NCBI RefSeq assembly: GCF_003334385.1
Contig: NZ_QOWN01000014.1
DNA: 64,000 nt
Reading direction: 5' to 3' (one strand)
Source of the DNA: Escherichia coli
GTDB lineage: Bacteria; Pseudomonadota; Gammaproteobacteria; Enterobacterales; Enterobacteriaceae
In this document: positions 2,895-23,044 of the stretch, piece after piece
Layout of the letters: every line of letters starts with the position of its first letter
How positions within the stretch are numbered: position 1 is the stretch's first letter
Made by a program: the position numbers and the translations under genes
The notes under the pieces: model-generated
Told to the model about the DNA's origin: nothing
What the model saw: only the letters and a program-made list of their open reading frames with translations
The model's database searches: none

Positions 2895-3682
2895 ATGCAA
2901 ACCATCACCATCGCCCCACCCAAGCGCAGCTGGTTCTCGCTTCTGAGCTGGGCCGTTGTACTCGCCGTGTTGGTCGTCTCGTGGCAGGGCGCGGAAATGG
3001 CCCCGCTTACGCTGATCAAAGACGGCGGCAACATGGCGACGTTCGCCGCCGACTTCTTCCCGCCCGATTTCAGCCAGTGGCAGGATTACCTCACCGAAAT
3101 GGCCGTCACGCTGCAAATCGCCGTCTGGGGCACCGCGCTGGCGGTGGTTCTCTCCATCCCCTTTGGCCTGATGAGCGCCGAAAACCTGGTGCCGTGGTGG
3201 GTTTACCAGCCCGTTCGCCGCCTGATGGACGCCTGCCGCGCCATTAACGAAATGGTCTTCGCCATGCTGTTCGTGGTCGCCGTCGGCCTCGGCCCGTTCG
3301 CTGGCGTGCTGGCGTGCTGGCGCTGTTTATCCACACCACCGGCGTGCTCTCCAAGCTGCTTTCCGAAGCGGTGGAAGCGATTGAACCCGGCCCGGTGGAA
3401 GGCATTCGCGCCACCGGTGCCAACAAGCTCGAAGAGATCCTCTACGGCGTGCTGCCACAGGTGATGCCACTGCTGATCTCCTACTCCCTCTATCGCTTCG
3501 AATCCAACGTCCGCTCGGCGACCGTCGTCGGCATGGTCGGCGCAGGCGGGATCGGCGTCACCCTGTGGGAAGCGATTCGCGGTTTCCAGTTCCAACAAAC
3601 CTGCGCCCTGATGGTGCTTATCATCGTCACGGTCAGCCTGCTGGATTTCCTCTCTCAACGGTTGCGTAAGCACTTTATCTGA
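2895..3682 (+). pseudogene. phnE: phnE (phosphonate ABC permease) inactivated by an 8-bp tandem duplication frameshift
   Basis: ORF from ATG 2895 ([13 protein letters not shown]…) leaves frame at ctggcgtg-ctggcgtg (3301-3316); PhnE C-terminal sequence continues in the +2 frame (ORF 3314..3682, …[23 protein letters not shown]…RLRKHFI). Confidence 0.9.
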
Positions 3683-3702
3683 TAAGCGAGGCATTGATAT
3701 CT

Positions 3703-4428
3703 ATGCACTTGTCTACACATCCGACCAGCTACCCAACACGCTATCAAGAGATAGCCGCAAAACTTGAGCAGGAGCTTCGTCAACACTACCGCTGCGGCGA
3801 CTATCTTCCCGCCGAGCAGCAACTGGCAGCGCGCTTTGAGGTGAATCGCCACACCCTGCGCCGCGCCATCGACCAACTGGTGGAAAAAGGCTGGGTACAG
3901 CGCCGTCAGGGCGTCGGCGTGCTGGTGCTGATGCGCCCGTTCGATTACCCGCTCAACGCCCAGGCGCGTTTTAGCCAGAATCTGCTGGATCAGGGCAGCC
4001 ATCCCACCAGCGAAAAACTGCTTTCGGTATTGCGCCCCGCGTCCGGCCACGTCGCTGACGCACTGGGGATTACCGAGGGGGAGAACGTCATCCACCTGCG
4101 CACCCTGCGTCGTGTCAACGGCGTCGCGCTCTGTTTAATCGACCACTACTTCGCGGACCTCACCCTCTGGCCGACGCTGCAACGCTTCGACAGCGGCTCG
4201 CTGCACGATTTTCTGCGCGAGCAAACCGGAATTGCGCTGCGCCGCAGCCAGACGCGGATCAGCGCCCGCCGCGCCCAGGCCAAAGAGTGCCAGCGTCTTG
4301 AAATCCCGAATATGTCGCCGCTGCTGTGCGTGCGCACCCTTAACCACCGTGACGGTGAAAGCAGCCCGGCGGAGTACTCCGTCAGCCTGACGCGCGCCGA
4401 CATGATTGAATTCACTATGGAGCACTGA
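3703..4428 (+). CDS. phnF: GntR-family transcriptional regulator PhnF
   Basis: ORF MHLSTHPTSYPTRYQEIAAKLEQELR… with GntR-type HTH; ATG at 3703 chosen over the upstream TTG of the ORF track. Confidence 0.9.
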   Translation: MHLSTHPTSYPTRYQEIAAKLEQELRQHYRCGDYLPAEQQLAARFEVNRHTLRRAIDQLVEKGWVQRRQGVGVLVLMRPFDYPLNAQARFSQNLLDQGSHPTSEKLLSVLRPASGHVADALGITEGENVIHLRTLRRVNGVALCLIDHYFADLTLWPTLQRFDSGSLHDFLREQTGIALRRSQTRISARRAQAKECQRLEIPNMSPLLCVRTLNHRDGESSPAEYSVSLTRADMIEFTMEH

Positions 4429-4881
4429 ATGCACGCAGATACCGCGACCCGCCAGCACTGGATGTCCGTGCTGGCGCACAGCCAACCGGCTGAACTGGCA
4501 GCACGCCTGAACGCGCTAAACATCACCGCCGACTATGAGGTGATCCGCGCCGCTGAAACTGGCCTGGTACAGATTCAGGCGCGGATGGGCGGCACCGGCG
4601 AACGTTTTTTTGCCGGCGACGCCACGCTGACCCGCGCCGCCGTGCGCCTGACTGACGGCACGCTCGGCTACAGCTGGGTGCAGGGGCGTGATAAACAGCA
4701 CGCCGAACGCTGCGCGCTGATTGACGCGCTGATGCAGCAATCTCGCCACTTTCAAAACTTATCAGAAACCCTTATTGCCCCGCTGGACGCTGACCGTATG
4801 GCACGCATTGCCGCACGCCAGGCCGAAGTGAACGCCAGCCGGGTCGACTTCTTTACGATGGTTCGCGGAGACAACGCATGA
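4429..4881 (+). CDS. phnG: C-P lyase core complex subunit PhnG
   Basis: 150-aa [30 protein letters not shown]…; operon position. Confidence 0.9.
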
Positions 4882-5462
4882 CCCTGGAAACCGCTTTTAT
4901 GCTTCCCGTGCAGGATGCCCAGCACAGTTTTCGTCGCCTGTTAAAGGCCATGAGCGAGCCGGGCGTGATTGTCGCCCTGCATCAGCTCAAACGCGGCTGG
5001 CAACCGCTGAATATCGCCACCACCAGCGTGCTGCTGACGCTGGCCGATAACGACACGCCGGTGTGGCTTTCTACCCCATTAAATAACGATATCGTCAACC
5101 AGAGCCTGCGTTTTCATACCAACGCGCCGCTGGTCAGCCAGCCGGAACAGGCGACCTTCGCGGTGACGGATGAGGCGATTTCCAGCGAACAGCTCAACGC
5201 CCTTTCCACCGGCACCGCCGTTGCGCCGGAAGCGGGTGCGACGCTGATTTTACAGGTCGCCAGCCTGAGCGGCGGACGCATGTTGCGCCTTACTGGTGCG
5301 GGTATTGCCGAAGAACGAATGATCGCTCCGCAGCTGCCGGAGTGCATTCTGCACGAACTCACCGAGCGCCCGCATCCGTTCCCGCTCGGCATCGACCTGA
5401 TCCTGACCTGTGGCGAGCGCCTGCTGGCTATTCCGCGAACCACTCATGTGGAGGTGTGCTGA
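4878..5462 (+). CDS. phnH: C-P lyase core complex subunit PhnH
   Basis: 194-aa [33 protein letters not shown]…; 4-nt overlap with phnG stop. Confidence 0.9.
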
Positions 5463-6520
5463 TGTACGTTGCCGTGAAAGGGGGCGAGAAGGCGATCGAC
5501 GCCGCCCACGCCCTGCAAGAGAGCCGACGCCGAGGCGATACCGATTTGCCCGAACTGAGCGTCGCCCAGATTGAACAGCAGCTTAACCTCGCGGTAGATC
5601 GCGTGATGACCGAAGGCGGCATTGCCGACCGCGAACTGGCGGCGCTGGCGCTGAAACAGGCCAGCGGCGATAACGTTGAAGCGATTTTCCTGCTGCGCGC
5701 CTACCGCACCACGTTGGCGAAGCTGGCGGTAAGCGAGCCGCTCGACACCACCGGGATGCGTCTCGAACGCCGTATCTCCGCCGTTTATAAAGACATTCCC
5801 GGCGGCCAGCTGCTTGGCCCAACCTACGACTACACCCATCGCCTGCTCGATTTTACCCTGCTGGCAAACGGCGAAGCGCCGACGCTGACCACCGCCGACA
5901 GCGAACAGCAGCCGTCGCCGCACGTTTTCAGCCTGCTGGCGCGTCAGGGGCTGGCGAAGTTTGAAGAGGATAGCGGCGCACAGCCGGATGACATCACCCG
6001 CACGCCGCCGGTTTACCCCTGCTCACGCTCCTCCCGTTTGCAGCAGTTGATGCGCGGCGACGAAGGCTATTTGCTGGCGCTGGCCTACTCCACCCAACGC
6101 GGTTACGGGCGCAATCACCCGTTCGCAGGCGAGATCCGCAGCGGCTATATCGACGTGTCGATTGTGCAGGAAGAGCTGGGATTTGCGGTGAACGTCGGCG
6201 AACTGCTGATGACTGAGTGTGAAATGGTTAACGGTTTTATCGACCCGCCGGGTGAGCCGCCGCACTTCACGCGCGGCTACGGGCTGGTGTTCGGCATGAG
6301 CGAGCGCAAAGCGATGGCGCTGGTCGACCGCGCTCTGCAAGCCCCGGAGTACGGCGAGCACGCGACAGGCCCGGCGCAGGATGAAGAGTTCGTGCTGGCA
6401 CATGCCGACAACGTCGAAGCCGCAGGCTTTGTCTCACACCTCAAACTCCCCCACTACGTCGATTTCCAGGCCGAACTGGAGCTACTCAAACGTCTGCAAC
6501 AGGAGCAGAACCATGGCTAA
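5456..6520 (+). CDS. phnI: C-P lyase core complex subunit PhnI (ribosyl-transferring)
   Basis: ORF …[26 protein letters not shown]…; likely GTG start at 5456 (ATG at 5462 is the alternative), overlapping the phnH stop. Confidence 0.88.
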
Positions 6521-7358
6521 TCTGAGCGGCTACAACTTTGCCTACCTCGACGAGCAGACCAAACGCATGATCCGCCGCGCCATCTTAAAAGCGGTGGCGA
6601 TCCCCGGTTATCAGGTGCCGTTTGGCGGGCGCGAGATGCCGATGCCGTACGGCTGGGGAACCGGCGGCATTCAGCTTACCGCCAGCGTGATTGGCGAAAG
6701 CGACGTGCTGAAGGTGATTGACCAGGGCGCGGATGACACCACCAACGCCGTGTCGATTCGCAACTTCTTCAAGCGCGTGACCGGGGTAAACACCACGGAA
6801 CGTACGGACGATGCGACGGTTATCCAGACGCGTCACCGCATCCCCGAAACGCCGCTGACCGAAGATCAGATAATTATCTTCCAGGTGCCAATCCCCGAGC
6901 CGCTGCGCTTTATCGAGCCGCGCGAAACGGAAACCCGCACCATGCACGCGCTGGAAGAGTACGGCGTGATGCAGGTGAAACTGTATGAAGATATCGCCCG
7001 CTTCGGTCATATCGCCACCACCTACGCCTATCCGGTGAAGGTAAATGGGCGCTACGTGATGGACCCGTCGCCGATCCCGAAATTCGATAACCCAAAAATG
7101 GACATGATGCCCGCCCTGCAACTGTTCGGCGCGGGGCGCGAGAAGCGCATCTATGCGGTGCCGCCGTTTACCCGCGTGGAAAGTCTCGATTTCGACGATC
7201 ACCCGTTCACCGTTCAGCAGTGGGATGAGCCATGCGCCATCTGCGGATCGACCCACAGCTATCTTGATGAAGTGGTGCTGGATGACGCCGGAAACCGCAT
7301 GTTTGTCTGCTCCGATACCGATTATTGCCGCCAACAGAGCGAGGCAAAAAACCAATGA
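6513..7358 (+). CDS. phnJ: C-P lyase PhnJ (radical SAM-dependent C-P bond cleavage)
   Basis: [40 protein letters not shown]…CAICGSTHSYLDEVVLDD…; ATG 6513 overlaps the phnI stop. Confidence 0.93.
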   Translation: MANLSGYNFAYLDEQTKRMIRRAILKAVAIPGYQVPFGGREMPMPYGWGTGGIQLTASVIGESDVLKVIDQGADDTTNAVSIRNFFKRVTGVNTTERTDDATVIQTRHRIPETPLTEDQIIIFQVPIPEPLRFIEPRETETRTMHALEEYGVMQVKLYEDIARFGHIATTYAYPVKVNGRYVMDPSPIPKFDNPKMDMMPALQLFGAGREKRIYAVPPFTRVESLDFDDHPFTVQQWDEPCAICGSTHSYLDEVVLDDAGNRMFVCSDTDYCRQQSEAKNQ

Positions 7359-8113
7359 ATCAACCGTTACTTTCGGTCAATAACCTGACCCACCTTTACG
7401 CGCCGGGCAAAGGCTTTAGCGATGTCTCTTTTGATTTATGGCCGGGGGAAGTGCTGGGCATTGTCGGGGAATCCGGCTCCGGGAAGACCACGCTGCTGAA
7501 GTCGATCTCCGCGCGCCTGACGCCGCAGCAGGGGGAAATTCACTACGAGAACCGTTCGCTGTATGCAATGAGCGAGGCCGACCGCCGTCGCCTGCTGCGT
7601 ACCGAATGGGGCGTGGTGCATCAGCATCCACTCGACGGCCTGCGCCGCCAGGTGTCGGCAGGCGGCAATATCGGCGAGCGGCTGATGGCGACCGGGGCAC
7701 GTCATTACGGCGATATTCGTGCCACCGCGCAGAAGTGGCTGGAAGAGGTGGAGATTCCCGCCAACCGGATCGACGACCTGCCGACCACCTTTTCCGGCGG
7801 TATGCAGCAGCGTTTGCAGATTGCCCGCAACCTGGTGACGCATCCGAAGCTGGTGTTTATGGATGAACCGACCGGCGGGCTGGATGTGTCGGTGCAGGCC
7901 CGCCTGCTCGACCTGCTGCGCGGCCTGGTGGTGGAGCTGAACCTCGCGGTGGTGATTGTCACCCATGATTTAGGCGTCGCCCGCCTGCTGGCGGACCGTT
8001 TGCTGGTGATGAAGCAGGGGCAAGTGGTGGAGAGTGGGTTAACCGACCGCGTGCTCGACGACCCGCATCATCCGTATACACAGCTGCTGGTGTCATCGGT
8101 TTTGCAGAATTGA
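7355..8113 (+). CDS. phnK: ABC-type ATPase PhnK (C-P lyase accessory)
   Basis: [18 protein letters not shown]… with Walker [14 protein letters not shown] overlap with phnJ stop. Confidence 0.93.
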
Positions 8114-8117
8114 GCCG

Positions 8118-8212
<95 letters not shown>

Positions 8213-8223
8213 CGAGGCGAAAA

Positions 8224-8904
8224 ATGATTAACGTACAAAACGTCAGTAAAACCTTCATCCTGCACCAGCAAAACGGCGTGCGCCTGCCCGTCCTCAATCG
8301 CGCCTCGCTCACCGTCAACGCGGGCGAATGCGTGGTGCTCCACGGCCATTCCGGCAGCGGCAAATCAACTCTGCTACGCTCGCTGTACGCCAACTATCTG
8401 CCCGACGAAGGTCAAATCCAGATCAAACACGGTGACGAGTGGGTAGACCTGGTCACCGCGCCAGCGCGCAAAGTGGTGGAAATCCGCAAAACCACCGTCG
8501 GCTGGGTGAGCCAGTTTCTGCGCGTCATCCCGCGTATCTCAGCACTGGAAGTGGTGATGCAGCCGCTGCTCGATACCGGCGTTCCGCGTGAAGCCTGCGC
8601 CGCTAAAGCCGCGCGTCTTCTCACCCGCCTGAACGTGCCGGAACGCCTGTGGCACCTGGCACCATCGACATTTTCCGGTGGCGAACAGCAGCGCGTCAAC
8701 ATCGCCCGCGGCTTTATCGTCGACTACCCCATTCTGCTGCTTGACGAACCTACCGCCTCGCTGGACGCCAAAAACAGCGCCGCGGTGGTGGAACTGATTC
8801 GCGAAGCCAAAACCCGTGGCGCAGCCATCGTAGGCATCTTCCATGACGAAGCTGTACGTAATGACGTCGCCGACCGCCTGCACCCAATGGGAGCCTCTTC
8901 ATGA
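8224..8904 (+). CDS. phnL: ABC-type ATPase PhnL (C-P lyase accessory)
   Basis: [27 protein letters not shown]… with Walker [10 protein letters not shown]; the ORF-track upstream extension runs into the REP element, so ATG 8224 is preferred. Confidence 0.9.
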
Positions 8905-10037
8905 TTATCAATAACGTTAAGCTGGTGCTGGAAAACGAGGTGGTAAGCGGTTCGCTGGAGGTGCAGAACGGCGAAATCCGCGCCTTTGCCGAAAGCCAGA
9001 GCCGCCTGCCGGAGGCGATGGACGGCGAAGGCGGCTGGCTGCTGCCGGGGCTGATTGAGCTGCATACCGATAATCTGGATAAATTCTTCACCCCGCGCCC
9101 GAAAGTTGACTGGCCTGCCCACTCGGCGATGAGCAGCCACGACGCGCTGATGGTGGCGAGCGGCATCACCACCGTACTGGATGCCGTGGCAATTGGCGAC
9201 GTGCGCGACGGCGGCGATCGGCTGGAGAATCTGGAGAAGATGATCAACGCCATCGAAGAGACGCAGAAACGCGGCGTCAACCGCGCCGAGCACCGTCTGC
9301 ATCTGCGCTGCGAACTGCCGCATCACACCACGCTGCCGCTGTTTGAAAAACTGGTGCAGCGCGAGCCGGTGACGCTGGTGTCGCTGATGGACCACTCGCC
9401 GGGCCAGCGCCAGTTCGCCAACCGCGAGAAGTATCGCGAATATTATCAGGGCAAATACTCCCTCACTGATGCGCAGATGCAGCAGTACGAAGAAGAGCAA
9501 CTGGCGCTCGCCGCACGCTGGTCGCAGCCGAATCGCGAATCCATCGCCGCCCTGTGCCGCGCGCGAAAAATTGCGCTTGCCAGCCACGATGACGCCACCC
9601 ACGCCCACGTTGCTGAATCTCACCAGCTTGGCAGCGTGATCGCCGAATTTCCCACCACGTTCGAAGCGGCGGAAGCCTCGCGCAAGCATGGCATGAACGT
9701 GCTGATGGGCGCGCCGAATATTGTGCGCGGCGGCTCGCACTCCGGCAACGTGGCGGCCAGTGAACTGGCGCAGCTTGGCCTGCTGGATATCCTCTCTTCC
9801 GACTACTACCCCGCCAGCCTGCTCGATGCGGCATTTCGCGTCGCCGATGACCAGAGCAACCGCTTTACGCTGCCGCAGGCGGTGAAGCTGGTGACTAAAA
9901 ATCCAGCGCAGGCGCTTAATCTCCAGGATCGCGGGGTGATTGGCGAGGGCAAACGCGCCGACCTGGTGCTGGCGCATCGCAAGGACAATCATATTCATAT
10001 CGACCACGTCTGGCGTCAGGGTAAAAGGGTGTTCTGA
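8901..10037 (+). CDS. phnM: PhnM, amidohydrolase-family RPnTP diphosphatase
   Basis: 378-aa [32 protein letters not shown]… with metal-dependent hydrolase HTD motif (LHTDNLDKF). Confidence 0.92.
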
Positions 10038-10594
10038 TGATGGGAAAACTGATTTGGTTAATGGGGCCGTCCGGCTCCGGGAAAGACAGCCTGCTGGCGG
10101 AACTCCGCCTGCGGGAACAAACTCAGTTACTGGTGGCGCATCGCTACATCACGCGCGATGCCAGCGCCGGAAGTGAAAACCATATCGCCCTGAGCGAGCA
10201 GGAGTTTTTTACCCGCGCGGGGCAAAATCTGTTGGCCTTAAGCTGGCACGCTAACGGTCTGTATTATGGCGTCGGCGTCGAGATTGATCTCTGGCTGCAC
10301 GCCGGATTCGACGTGCTGGTCAACGGCTCACGCGCCCATCTGCCGCAGGCGCGGGCGCGCTATCAATCGGCGCTGCTGCCCGTCTGTTTACAGGTTTCGC
10401 CGGAGATCCTCCGCCAGCGCCTGGAAAACCGTGGCCGTGAAAACGCCAGTGAAATTAACGCCCGCCTGGCGCGCGCCGCCCGCTATACTCCACAGGATTG
10501 CCATACGCTCAACAATGACGGCAGCCTGCGCCAGTCGGTCGACACGCTGCTGACGCTGATCCATCAGAAGGAGAAACACCATGCCTGCTTGTGA
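10037..10594 (+). CDS. phnN: Ribose 1,5-bisphosphate phosphokinase PhnN
   Basis: 185-aa ORF with P-loop [14 protein letters not shown] overlap with phnM. Confidence 0.92.
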
Positions 10595-11015
10595 GCTTCG
10601 CCCGGCCACGCAGTACGACACCGACGCGGTTTACGCGCTGATTTGTGAGCTAAAACAGGCGGAGTTTGACCACCACGCGTTTCGCGTGGGTTTTAACGCC
10701 AATCTGCGCGACCCAAACATGCGCTACCATCTGGCGCTGCTTGATGGCGAAGTTGTCGGCATGATCGGCCTGCATTTGCAGTTTCATCTGCATCATGTCA
10801 ACTGGATCGGCGAAATTCAGGAGTTGGTGGTAATGCCGCAGGCGCGCGGTCTGAACGTCGGCAGTAAGTTACTGGCGTGGGCAGAAGAAGAAGCCCGCCA
10901 GGCCGGGGCCGAAATGACCGAACTTTCGACCAACGTGAAGCGCCACGACGCGCACCGTTTCTATCTGCGCGAAGGCTACGAGCAGAGCCACTTCCGCTTC
11001 ACCAAGGCGCTGTAA
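10581..11015 (+). CDS. phnO: Aminoalkylphosphonate N-acetyltransferase PhnO (GNAT)
   Basis: 144-aa [35 protein letters not shown]…. Confidence 0.92.
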
Positions 11016-11016
11016 C

Positions 11017-11775
11017 ATGAGCCTGACCCTCACGCTCACCGGCACCGGCGGCGCACAGGGCGTTCCGGCATGGGGCTGCGAGTGTGCGGCCTGCGCCAGA
11101 GCGCGGCGCTCGCCGCAGTATCGCCGCCAACCGTGCAGCGGCGTAGTGAAGTTTAACGACGCAATCACCCTGATCGACGCCGGGCTGCACGATCTCGCCG
11201 ATCGCTGGTCGCCCGGATCGTTCCAGCAGTTTTTGCTGACGCATTATCATATGGATCACGTCCAGGGGCTGTTTCCGCTGCGCTGGGGCGTTGGCGATCC
11301 GATCCCGGTTTACGGCCCGCCGGATGAACAGGGCTGCGACGATCTGTTTAAACATCCGGGCCTGCTTGATTTCAGCCACACGGTGGAACCGTTTGTGGTG
11401 TTTGATTTGCAGGGGTTACAGGTCACGCCCCTGCCGCTCAACCACTCAAAACTGACCTTCGGTTATCTGCTGGAAACGGCACACAGCCGGGTGGCGTGGC
11501 TGTCTGACACCGCAGGCTTACCGGAAAAAACGCTGAAATTTTTACGCAATAATCAGCCGCAGGTAATGGTGATGGATTGCAGTCACCCGCCGCGCGCGGA
11601 TGCACCGCGTAATCACTGTGATTTAAATACCGTGCTTGCGCTGAATCAGGTTATCCGCTCGCCACGGGTGATTCTGACCCATATCAGCCACCAGTTTGAT
11701 GCGTGGCTGATGGAAAACGCACTACCGTCAGGGTTTGAGGTGGGGTTTGATGGGATGGAGATTGGGGTGGCGTGA
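11017..11775 (+). CDS. phnP: Phosphoribosyl 1,2-cyclic phosphate phosphodiesterase PhnP (metallo-beta-lactamase fold)
   Basis: 252-aa ORF with HxHxDH motif ([11 protein letters not shown]). Confidence 0.92.
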
Positions 11776-17640: not shown

Positions 17641-19252
<1,612 letters not shown>

Positions 19253-22012: not shown

Positions 22013-23044
22013 ATGGAAAGTACGCCGAAAAAAGCTCCTCGCAGTAAATTCCCTGCTCTGTTAGTGGTTGCGTTGGCGCTGGTTGCCCTTGTTTTCGTTA
22101 TCTGGCGCGTAGACAGTGCGCCATCAACTAATGACGCTTACGCGTCAGCAGATACCATTGATGTGGTACCGGAAGTCAGCGGCCGCATTGTAGAACTGGC
22201 GGTCACCGACAACCAGGCAGTCAAACAGGGCGATTTGCTGTTCCGCATCGACCCGCGCCCGTACGAAGCCAATCTGGCGAAAGCTGAAGCCTCCCTCGCG
22301 GCGCTGGATAAGCAAATTATGCTCACCCAGCGTAGCGTTGACGCGCAACAGTTTGGTGCCGACTCGGTTAATGCCACGGTAGAAAAAGCCCGTGCCGCCG
22401 CGAAACAGGCCACAGATACATTACGCCGCACCGAGCCATTACTGAAAGAAGGTTTTGTCTCAGCGGAAGATGTTGACCGTGCAAGAACGGCGCAGCGCGC
22501 CGCAGAAGCGGATCTTAATGCCGTATTGTTACAGGCGCAGTCAGCCGCCAGCGCCGTCAGCGGCGTGGATGCATTAGTTGCCCAGCGTGCGGCGGTCGAA
22601 GCGGATATTGCCCTGACCAAACTGCATCTGGAAATGGCGACCGTTCGCGCGCCGTTTGATGGCCGGGTCATTTCCCTCAAAACCTCCGTCGGGCAATTTG
22701 CTTCTGCCATGCGCCCTATTTTTACCCTAATCGACACTCGTCACTGGTATGTGATCGCCAACTTCCGCGAAACCGATCTGAAAAATATTCGCTCAGGTAC
22801 ACCCGCAACGATTCGCCTGATGAGTGACAGCGGCAAAACCTTCGAGGGTAAAGTGGATTCGATTGGCTACGGCGTGCTACCGGATGACGGCGGCCTGGTG
22901 CTGGGCGGCCTGCCGAAAGTGTCTCGTTCTATTAACTGGGTCCGCGTTGCCCAGCGTTTTCCGGTCAAAATCATGGTCGATAAACCTGACCCGGAAATGT
23001 TCCGCATCGGCGCTTCGGCAGTCGCTAATCTTGAGCCGCAATAA
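22013..23044 (+). CDS. mdtN: MdtN, membrane fusion protein (HlyD/EmrA family) of the MdtNOP efflux system
   Basis: 343-aa ORF with N-terminal TM anchor and coiled-coil region. Confidence 0.9.
   Translation: MESTPKKAPRSKFPALLVVALALVALVFVIWRVDSAPSTNDAYASADTIDVVPEVSGRIVELAVTDNQAVKQGDLLFRIDPRPYEANLAKAEASLAALDKQIMLTQRSVDAQQFGADSVNATVEKARAAAKQATDTLRRTEPLLKEGFVSAEDVDRARTAQRAAEADLNAVLLQAQSAASAVSGVDALVAQRAAVEADIALTKLHLEMATVRAPFDGRVISLKTSVGQFASAMRPIFTLIDTRHWYVIANFRETDLKNIRSGTPATIRLMSDSGKTFEGKVDSIGYGVLPDDGGLVLGGLPKVSRSINWVRVAQRFPVKIMVDKPDPEMFRIGASAVANLEPQ

Follow-up and report, generated by a model that had tools for sequence, protein, structure and literature searches.

Classical contingency loci, such as those of Haemophilus and Neisseria, carry tetra- or pentanucleotide tracts that change by slipped-strand mispairing. 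The closest described system in Escherichia coli is the cryptic phn(EcoK) allele of K-12, treated by Makino et al. 1991 and, as 'reversible phase variation in phnE', by Iqbal et al. 2004. In the latter work (J Bacteriol 186:6118) the OFF form was reportedly thought to be unique to K-12, and K-12 OFF forms are said to build up again when phosphonate selection ends. The cryptic allele has been described as a duplication of 8 bp that Phn+ mutants have lost (PMC3463581), and cryptic K-12 phnE holds three, not two, copies of the 8-bp unit (PMC7566553). In a K-12 revertant, 5'-GCTGGCGT is deleted at nt 407-414 of phnE and PhnCDE is activated, while a functional phnE is found in "the vast majority" of strains (PMC6469041). 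Loss of the unit, at high frequency, has been ascribed to slippage between direct repeats (PMC4759930).

Here we describe a phnE allele found in a window of E. coli DNA (the whole stretch that was analysed, 64,000 nucleotides). The feature is the known cryptic allele of the phn(EcoK) type; its core has already been described and belongs to textbook E. coli genetics. Compared with K-12, the same gene carries the same unit at the same place (phnE nt 406-429), and the three-unit OFF state and the predicted 259-aa product upon loss of one unit are alike. The two differ in that the host of the window belongs to a wild lineage, with TO6 and SCU-104 as relatives, and in that its operon adds PhnC D177N and changes in PhnI that are absent from K-12. 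In E. coli B and in most wild E. coli phnE is functional, of the phn(EcoB) type; it lies in the same operon and contains the same tract, but with two units; the window has one more and is hence out of frame.

Results

Repeat array and reading frame of phnE

Read directly, positions 3300-3323 of the window are GCTGGCGT GCTGGCGT GCTGGCGC. The array lies on the + strand and is made of two full units (3300-3307 and 3308-3315) and a third, imperfect one (GCTGGCGC at 3316-3323), which contributes GCTGGCG. String search places this heptamer at 3300, 3308 and 3316 and the octamer CTGGCGTG at 3301 and 3309, as the original prediction had it (an octamer twice in tandem at 3301-3316 within a run of GCTGGCG); the whole array spans 3300-3322, where Tandem Repeats Finder reports 2.9 copies of GCTGGCGT with period 8 and 100% matches. 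No other perfect array in the 64-kb window reaches 2.875 periods when periods of 4 to 12 are considered, and no period-8 array of at least 23 nt arose when the window was simulated 200 times with a first-order Markov model. By chance a window should hold about 3.7 arrays of at least 15 nt, the length of the functional 2-unit state. These frequencies mark the 2-unit ancestor as an ordinary repeat of the kind that chance produces and the 3-unit state as a duplication event upon it.

The phnE gene occupies 2895-3685 on the + strand (791 nt with its double stop, TGA TAA). In the frame that starts from ATG 2895, PhnE sequence is lost after about residue 140 and a premature stop follows at 3462-3464; the C-terminal half is found in the +2 frame as a 122-aa ORF that begins with GTG 3314 (3314-3682, + strand). 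Removal of one unit in silico joins this ORF with the N-terminal half in one frame, and an 8-base deletion starting anywhere from 3300 to 3315 produces the same 783-nt gene with a single 259-aa ORF. Membership in the PhnE family was judged by a full-length score above the curated cutoff (216.7 bits) of the NCBIfam equivalog model TIGR01097. The restored 259-aa protein scores 311.5 bits and covers model positions 8-251 of 252, and the product encoded at present, of 189 aa, scores 127.7 bits over positions 8-133 only. Since the latter falls below the cutoff with half of the model covered, phnE as it stands is a pseudogene; RefSeq labels the identical phnE of TO6 and SCU-104 'frameshifted'. The ORF reading thus bears out the earlier claim that an extra 8-bp unit shifts the frame of phnE and leaves its C-terminal half in the +2 frame, and the proposed deletion of one copy yields a continuous PhnE that scores above the cutoff. 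Both the observation and its frameshift-and-reversion reading are correct.

In functional genes the tract is GCTGGCGT GCTGGCGC, which encodes ..AGVLAL.. and has one full unit fewer than that of the window. The 2-unit phnE of ETEC1732 and Z217 equals the window gene minus one unit and is annotated as intact PhnE (WP_001193500). Tracts of 1, 3, 4 or 6 units are out of frame, and five units are in frame with 8 additional residues.

Gene order around phnE is that of MG1655, phnCDEFGHIJKLMNOP, with all genes on the + strand. Upstream lie phnC (960-1748), encoding the ATPase of the PhnCDE importer (603.9 bits versus NF007438), and an intact phnD (1773-2789), encoding the periplasmic phosphonate-binding protein (376.5 bits versus TIGR03431). 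Downstream are phnFGHIJKLMNOP (3703-11775), which encode the regulator and C-P lyase pathway proteins. All phn ORFs other than phnE are open, and those other than phnE, phnC and phnI are of normal length. Positions 279-1487, which contain the phnC promoter, are the same as in MG1655.

Lineage of the window

On the strength of this allele the window had also been placed in the K-12 lineage. Over positions 1-25000 the best hits are indeed K-12 strains, at 99.9%, and positions 1-29949 are 99.87% identical to MG1655, with 28 mismatches and 4 indel events; the phnE genes of the window and MG1655 differ at one synonymous base (A instead of G at 3385). K-12 derivatives, however, show only a handful of genome-wide differences from one another, and the near-identity to MG1655 or W3110 that would mark the K-12 lineage does not extend across the window. 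Identity to MG1655 over the distal 34 kb (29689-64000) is only 99.05% (304 mismatches), and the best matches of 39001-64000, at about 100%, are wild isolates (TO6, SW07091, N18-04097, LR-33, KE58, MB51 and SCU-104). These two identity figures refute a K-12 origin. Across the phn region, too, TO6 and SCU-104 are closer to the window than MG1655 is. The allele itself cannot place the window in K-12 because most of the approximately 1,009 3-unit genome records (see below) are wild isolates. No complete E. coli genome in our collection is identical to the window, the source of which is an unsampled relative of TO6, SCU-104 (obtained from a rectal swab of a healthy student) and their kin.

Several further features were noticed along the alignments. 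The fdhF region (27307-28804) has ten differences from MG1655, all synonymous, and is identical to TO6; the K-12-like segment, from phn to mdt, appears to meet a non-K-12 segment here, at a recombination boundary. Between 29965 and 40232 the window and SCU-104 differ at one base only. REP/BIME-like tandem arrays are present at 1-320 (period of 100 nt, 3.2 copies) and 29689-29951 (period of 113 nt, 2.3 copies). At both the alignment to MG1655 slips by whole units, so that the copy number or register of these arrays varies between strains.

Other changes in the operon and its neighbourhood

Comparison with MG1655, TO6 and 17 other strains revealed a G to A change at position 1488 that leaves the phnC ORF intact and results in D177N. 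The substitution is absent in 18 of the 19 other strains compared, and among 1,129 matching complete-genome records the variant phnC occurs in one, that of SCU-104. Alignments to solved ABC ATPases identify residue 177 as the Walker B aspartate (VILANEP in the query, IILADEP in MJ0796). Replacement of this aspartate with asparagine leaves residual activity in some ABC proteins. In CFTR the Mg2+ ligand is lost with the equivalent D1370N, and hydrolysis of ATP is impaired (PMC1289160). Since ABC importers depend on an ATPase that can hydrolyse ATP and PhnC of the window is D177N, a single slippage event would restore the frame of PhnE but probably not phosphonate uptake.

The phnI gene (5462-6520, + strand) carries P236Q (6168) and, after 6310, a 6-bp in-frame loss of one GCGATG unit that turns KAMAMAL into KAMAL, so that the protein is shorter by two residues (AM; 352 versus 354 aa). 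Both changes are unique to the window among 20 strains, and the loss of GCGATG is a second, in-frame slippage event in the phn operon. The description of the operon as cryptic and reversible by slippage is therefore only partly upheld: loss of one unit restores the reading frame, but reversal of uptake is doubtful with PhnC D177N and two changes in PhnI.

Outside phn, mdtO (starting at 23044) has a stop codon private to the window, W373* at 24162, which leaves 372 aa of the MdtO efflux permease, and R570H (24752), which is common to the window and SCU-104. In alsK (18960-18962) an A-run has three bases more than that of MG1655, TO6 or SCU-104, by which allose kinase gains one lysine (310 versus 309 aa). 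Private single-base changes in the phn-mdt segment are mostly G to A on the + strand of the window, a strand-biased spectrum; examples are 1488, 11520, 24162 and 24752 in the window and, in SCU-104, 1708, 4098, 18647, 18826 and 24103.

Number of repeat units in complete genomes

Unit states were assigned in a set of 5,426 complete E. coli genomes from probe matches. The 3-unit probe was 100 nt long with the tract at its centre, and an 8-nt gap in the match to it was read as 2 units. Three units were found in 1,001 records that match with no more than one mismatch, and in 8 others at 95-99% identity, that is, in about 1,009 of about 5,400, and two units in about 3,900. About 80% of the complete genome records have two units, which agrees with the functional phnE of "the vast majority" of strains (PMC6469041). 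A 4-unit probe had exact matches in 12 records, including the urinary isolate VR50, the locus of which was read directly. More than 99% of genomes have a tract of 2-3 units. For 1-unit alleles with K-12-like flanks the band count leaves, indirectly, no room (1,013 = 1,001 + 12).

The exact allele of the window (A3385) is estimated to occur in 630-720 records and the K-12-type allele in about 290-380; these are ranges rather than counts, as the split was derived from evenly spaced rows. All eight window-allele records that were sampled are non-laboratory isolates (from people, a duck and a slaughterhouse), and most of the sampled K-12-type records are laboratory strains. The allele belongs to one haplotype; identity to the 791-nt phnE of the window is 99% or higher in 999 records. 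On this K-12-like haplotype two units are present in only 5 records (ETEC1732, ETEC1734, Z217-2, Z217-4 and one MG1655 derivative), which are at least 99.9% identical to the gene minus one unit; the next 2-unit haplotype is 99.2% identical to it. The haplotype is thus OFF in about 1,000 records versus ON in 5. The phnE genes of the window, TO6, SCU-104, VR50 (4 units) and ETEC1732 (2 units) are identical except for the unit number.

Independent events have occurred on other haplotypes, with 3 units in bovine strain 35, 7 in OkiPb01713 and 10 in 2013C-4974, all out of frame; altogether, about 10 expanded alleles are found on other haplotypes among about 3,900 genomes. The presence of 2, 3, 4, 7 and 10 units in wild genomes means that the tract slips in nature, in both directions, with the reservation that consensus genomes represent the majority state of a laboratory-grown culture and fast within-population switching is invisible to such a census. 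Bovine OkiPb isolates with 2 and 7 units were considered as one recently switching clone, and this was rejected since their neighbouring proteins differ.

Some individual alleles deserve a separate mention. In OkiPb01713 and 2013C-4974 the array starts at phnE nt 406, and RefSeq labels the genes 'PhnE/PtxC family ABC transporter permease', frameshifted. In OkiPb01679 phnE has an 86-nt deletion between two CCCGTTCGC direct repeats, with loss of the segment just upstream of the 8-bp tract, which indicates a separate repeat-mediated route to inactivation of phnE. The tract of YL3 is GCTGGCGTACTGGCGC, in which a synonymous G to A breaks the direct repeat; due to this interruption slippage should be less likely in the YL3 lineage.

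Second-site damage in 3-unit strains

Additional disrupted phn genes were found in two of eight sampled wild 3-unit strains (GD33, phnJ Q54*; TBU0218, a phnI frameshift and phnM W46*) versus none of eight 2-unit strains, both sets being evenly sampled (Fisher p = 0.47). In the close relative SW07091 an IS1-mediated deletion has taken away the phn operon from within phnC onward, together with rpiB, the als genes and yjcS, and IS1 now stands in place of the stretch that ended just before ytcA (L003 20974-22254). Clade-private changes in phnC-P, with TBU0218 excluded, comprise 12 nonsynonymous changes and 1 stop versus 9 synonymous. Singletons of the 2-unit sample stand at 44 versus 182, and the contrast of this with 13:9 (p = 1e-4) is confounded by the young age of the mutations and by one divergent comparator, YL3, from which 169 of the 226 comparator singletons come. 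Nonsynonymous changes are always in excess among young mutations, and a flanking-gene control, with 6 events only, is too small to resolve the age confounding. Decay of the operon once it is OFF is suggested by these data, but not established. Nonsense mutations were also noticed in neighbouring genes of 3-unit strains (yjdN W102* in 5444 and cS76a; crfC L524* in 167), so recent disruptive mutations are not confined to the phn operon.

Discussion

The best explanation, which we hold to be very probably right, is that the window carries a cryptic allele of the phn(EcoK) type in a wild relative of SCU-104 and TO6, shared with K-12 by descent, and that its operon has been damaged further. Replication slippage would have added one full 8-bp unit to a short direct repeat in phnE. 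The added unit shifts the frame by +2, so that the permease ends after about 140 correct residues and the PhnCDE phosphonate/phosphate importer is left without its membrane subunit. The same slippage, by removing any one unit, restores the 259-aa PhnE; this was done in silico here and experimentally, for K-12, in the literature. With haplotypes one synonymous base apart, the window and K-12 would share the allele by descent. In the lineage the OFF state is almost fixed, and the operon of the window has PhnC D177N, the loss of AM from PhnI and PhnI P236Q as further changes.

It might instead be supposed that the window is K-12 itself, with an operon intact in all other respects that the tract, as a contingency switch, turns ON and OFF in a fully reversible way. 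In the tract and the phnE around it the window does equal the K-12 allele except for one synonymous base, K-12 strains top the matches of the first 25 kb, and high-frequency reversion has been published for K-12 (PMC6469041, PMC4759930). This reading is nevertheless very improbable: mismatches to MG1655 in the distal part are counted in hundreds where wild isolates match at about 100%, the 28 mismatches and 4 indel events of the first 30 kb include D177N, both PhnI changes and mdtO W373*, and the 3-unit allele is common among wild isolates. Still less credit can be given to an assembly or sequencing artefact as the source of the extra unit or of the other private differences. Some long-read assemblies are prone to errors in homopolymers and short GC-rich repeats, and two private indels do fall in repeats, the GCGATG of phnI and the A-run of alsK; these indels of 6 and 3 bases are, however, in frame, which is unusual for random indel errors, about 1,000 genomes, each sequenced independently, have the identical 3-unit tract, which experiments have confirmed in K-12, and D177N recurs in the independently sequenced SCU-104.

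More weight, though still on the unlikely side, goes to the idea that the OFF allele is kept by selection, with the tract as a rarely used reserve switch instead of a decaying pseudogene and expression of PhnE costly or dangerous. The cost could, for instance, arise if PhnE let in toxic phosphonates, or if phosphate or phosphite were taken up when this does harm. The ratio of about 1,000 OFF to 5 ON agrees with such selection, given that the tract slips both ways (one haplotype, otherwise identical, has 2, 3 or 4 units), and so do six of eight sampled OFF strains in which all other phn genes are intact, together with the OFF re-accumulation that Iqbal et al. 2004 are said to have seen in K-12. 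On the other hand, the lesions of GD33, TBU0218 and SW07091 and D177N of the window fit relaxed selection at least as well, and 4-unit records (12) outnumber 2-unit revertants (5), as neutral drift of a dead gene would give.

Returning to a wild cryptic allele shared by descent, the question is how far the tract behaves like a contingency locus, as the original prediction had suggested. The tract slips both ways in wild genomes, although on an identical haplotype the variants are rare (5 and 12 records versus about 1,000). As in Haemophilus and Neisseria, gain or loss of a short intragenic tandem unit switches the gene in and out of frame, and natural alleles of several sizes, from 2 to 10 units, also exist in phnE. 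Unlike in those loci, the phnE tract is very short and its unit long (8 bp), and the state is nearly fixed within haplotypes, without the within-lineage scatter of a fast contingency locus; with OFF nearly fixed on the K-12-like haplotype, that part of the suggestion needs to be qualified. In nature the tract looks more like a lineage-fixed, possibly decaying pseudogene than a fast switch. We would give about even chances to the broader view that the 3-unit OFF state is the mark of a large wild lineage in which it is near-fixed and second-site damage is accruing, with the tract a true variable-number repeat in nature; the gene would then be a dying pseudogene, or else one that selection holds OFF, rather than a fast switch of adaptive value.

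The value added beyond the known allele is modest and lies in the population picture. The 3-unit OFF allele is not peculiar to laboratory K-12, and, being present in roughly one in five complete E. coli genome records, it is unfit as a K-12 marker. In annotation and metabolic models phosphonate use is to be taken as absent in a sizeable wild lineage. Finally, ON alleles are rare on the K-12-like haplotype and second-site lesions occur, and it may be asked how far the laboratory picture of "phase variation" holds in nature.
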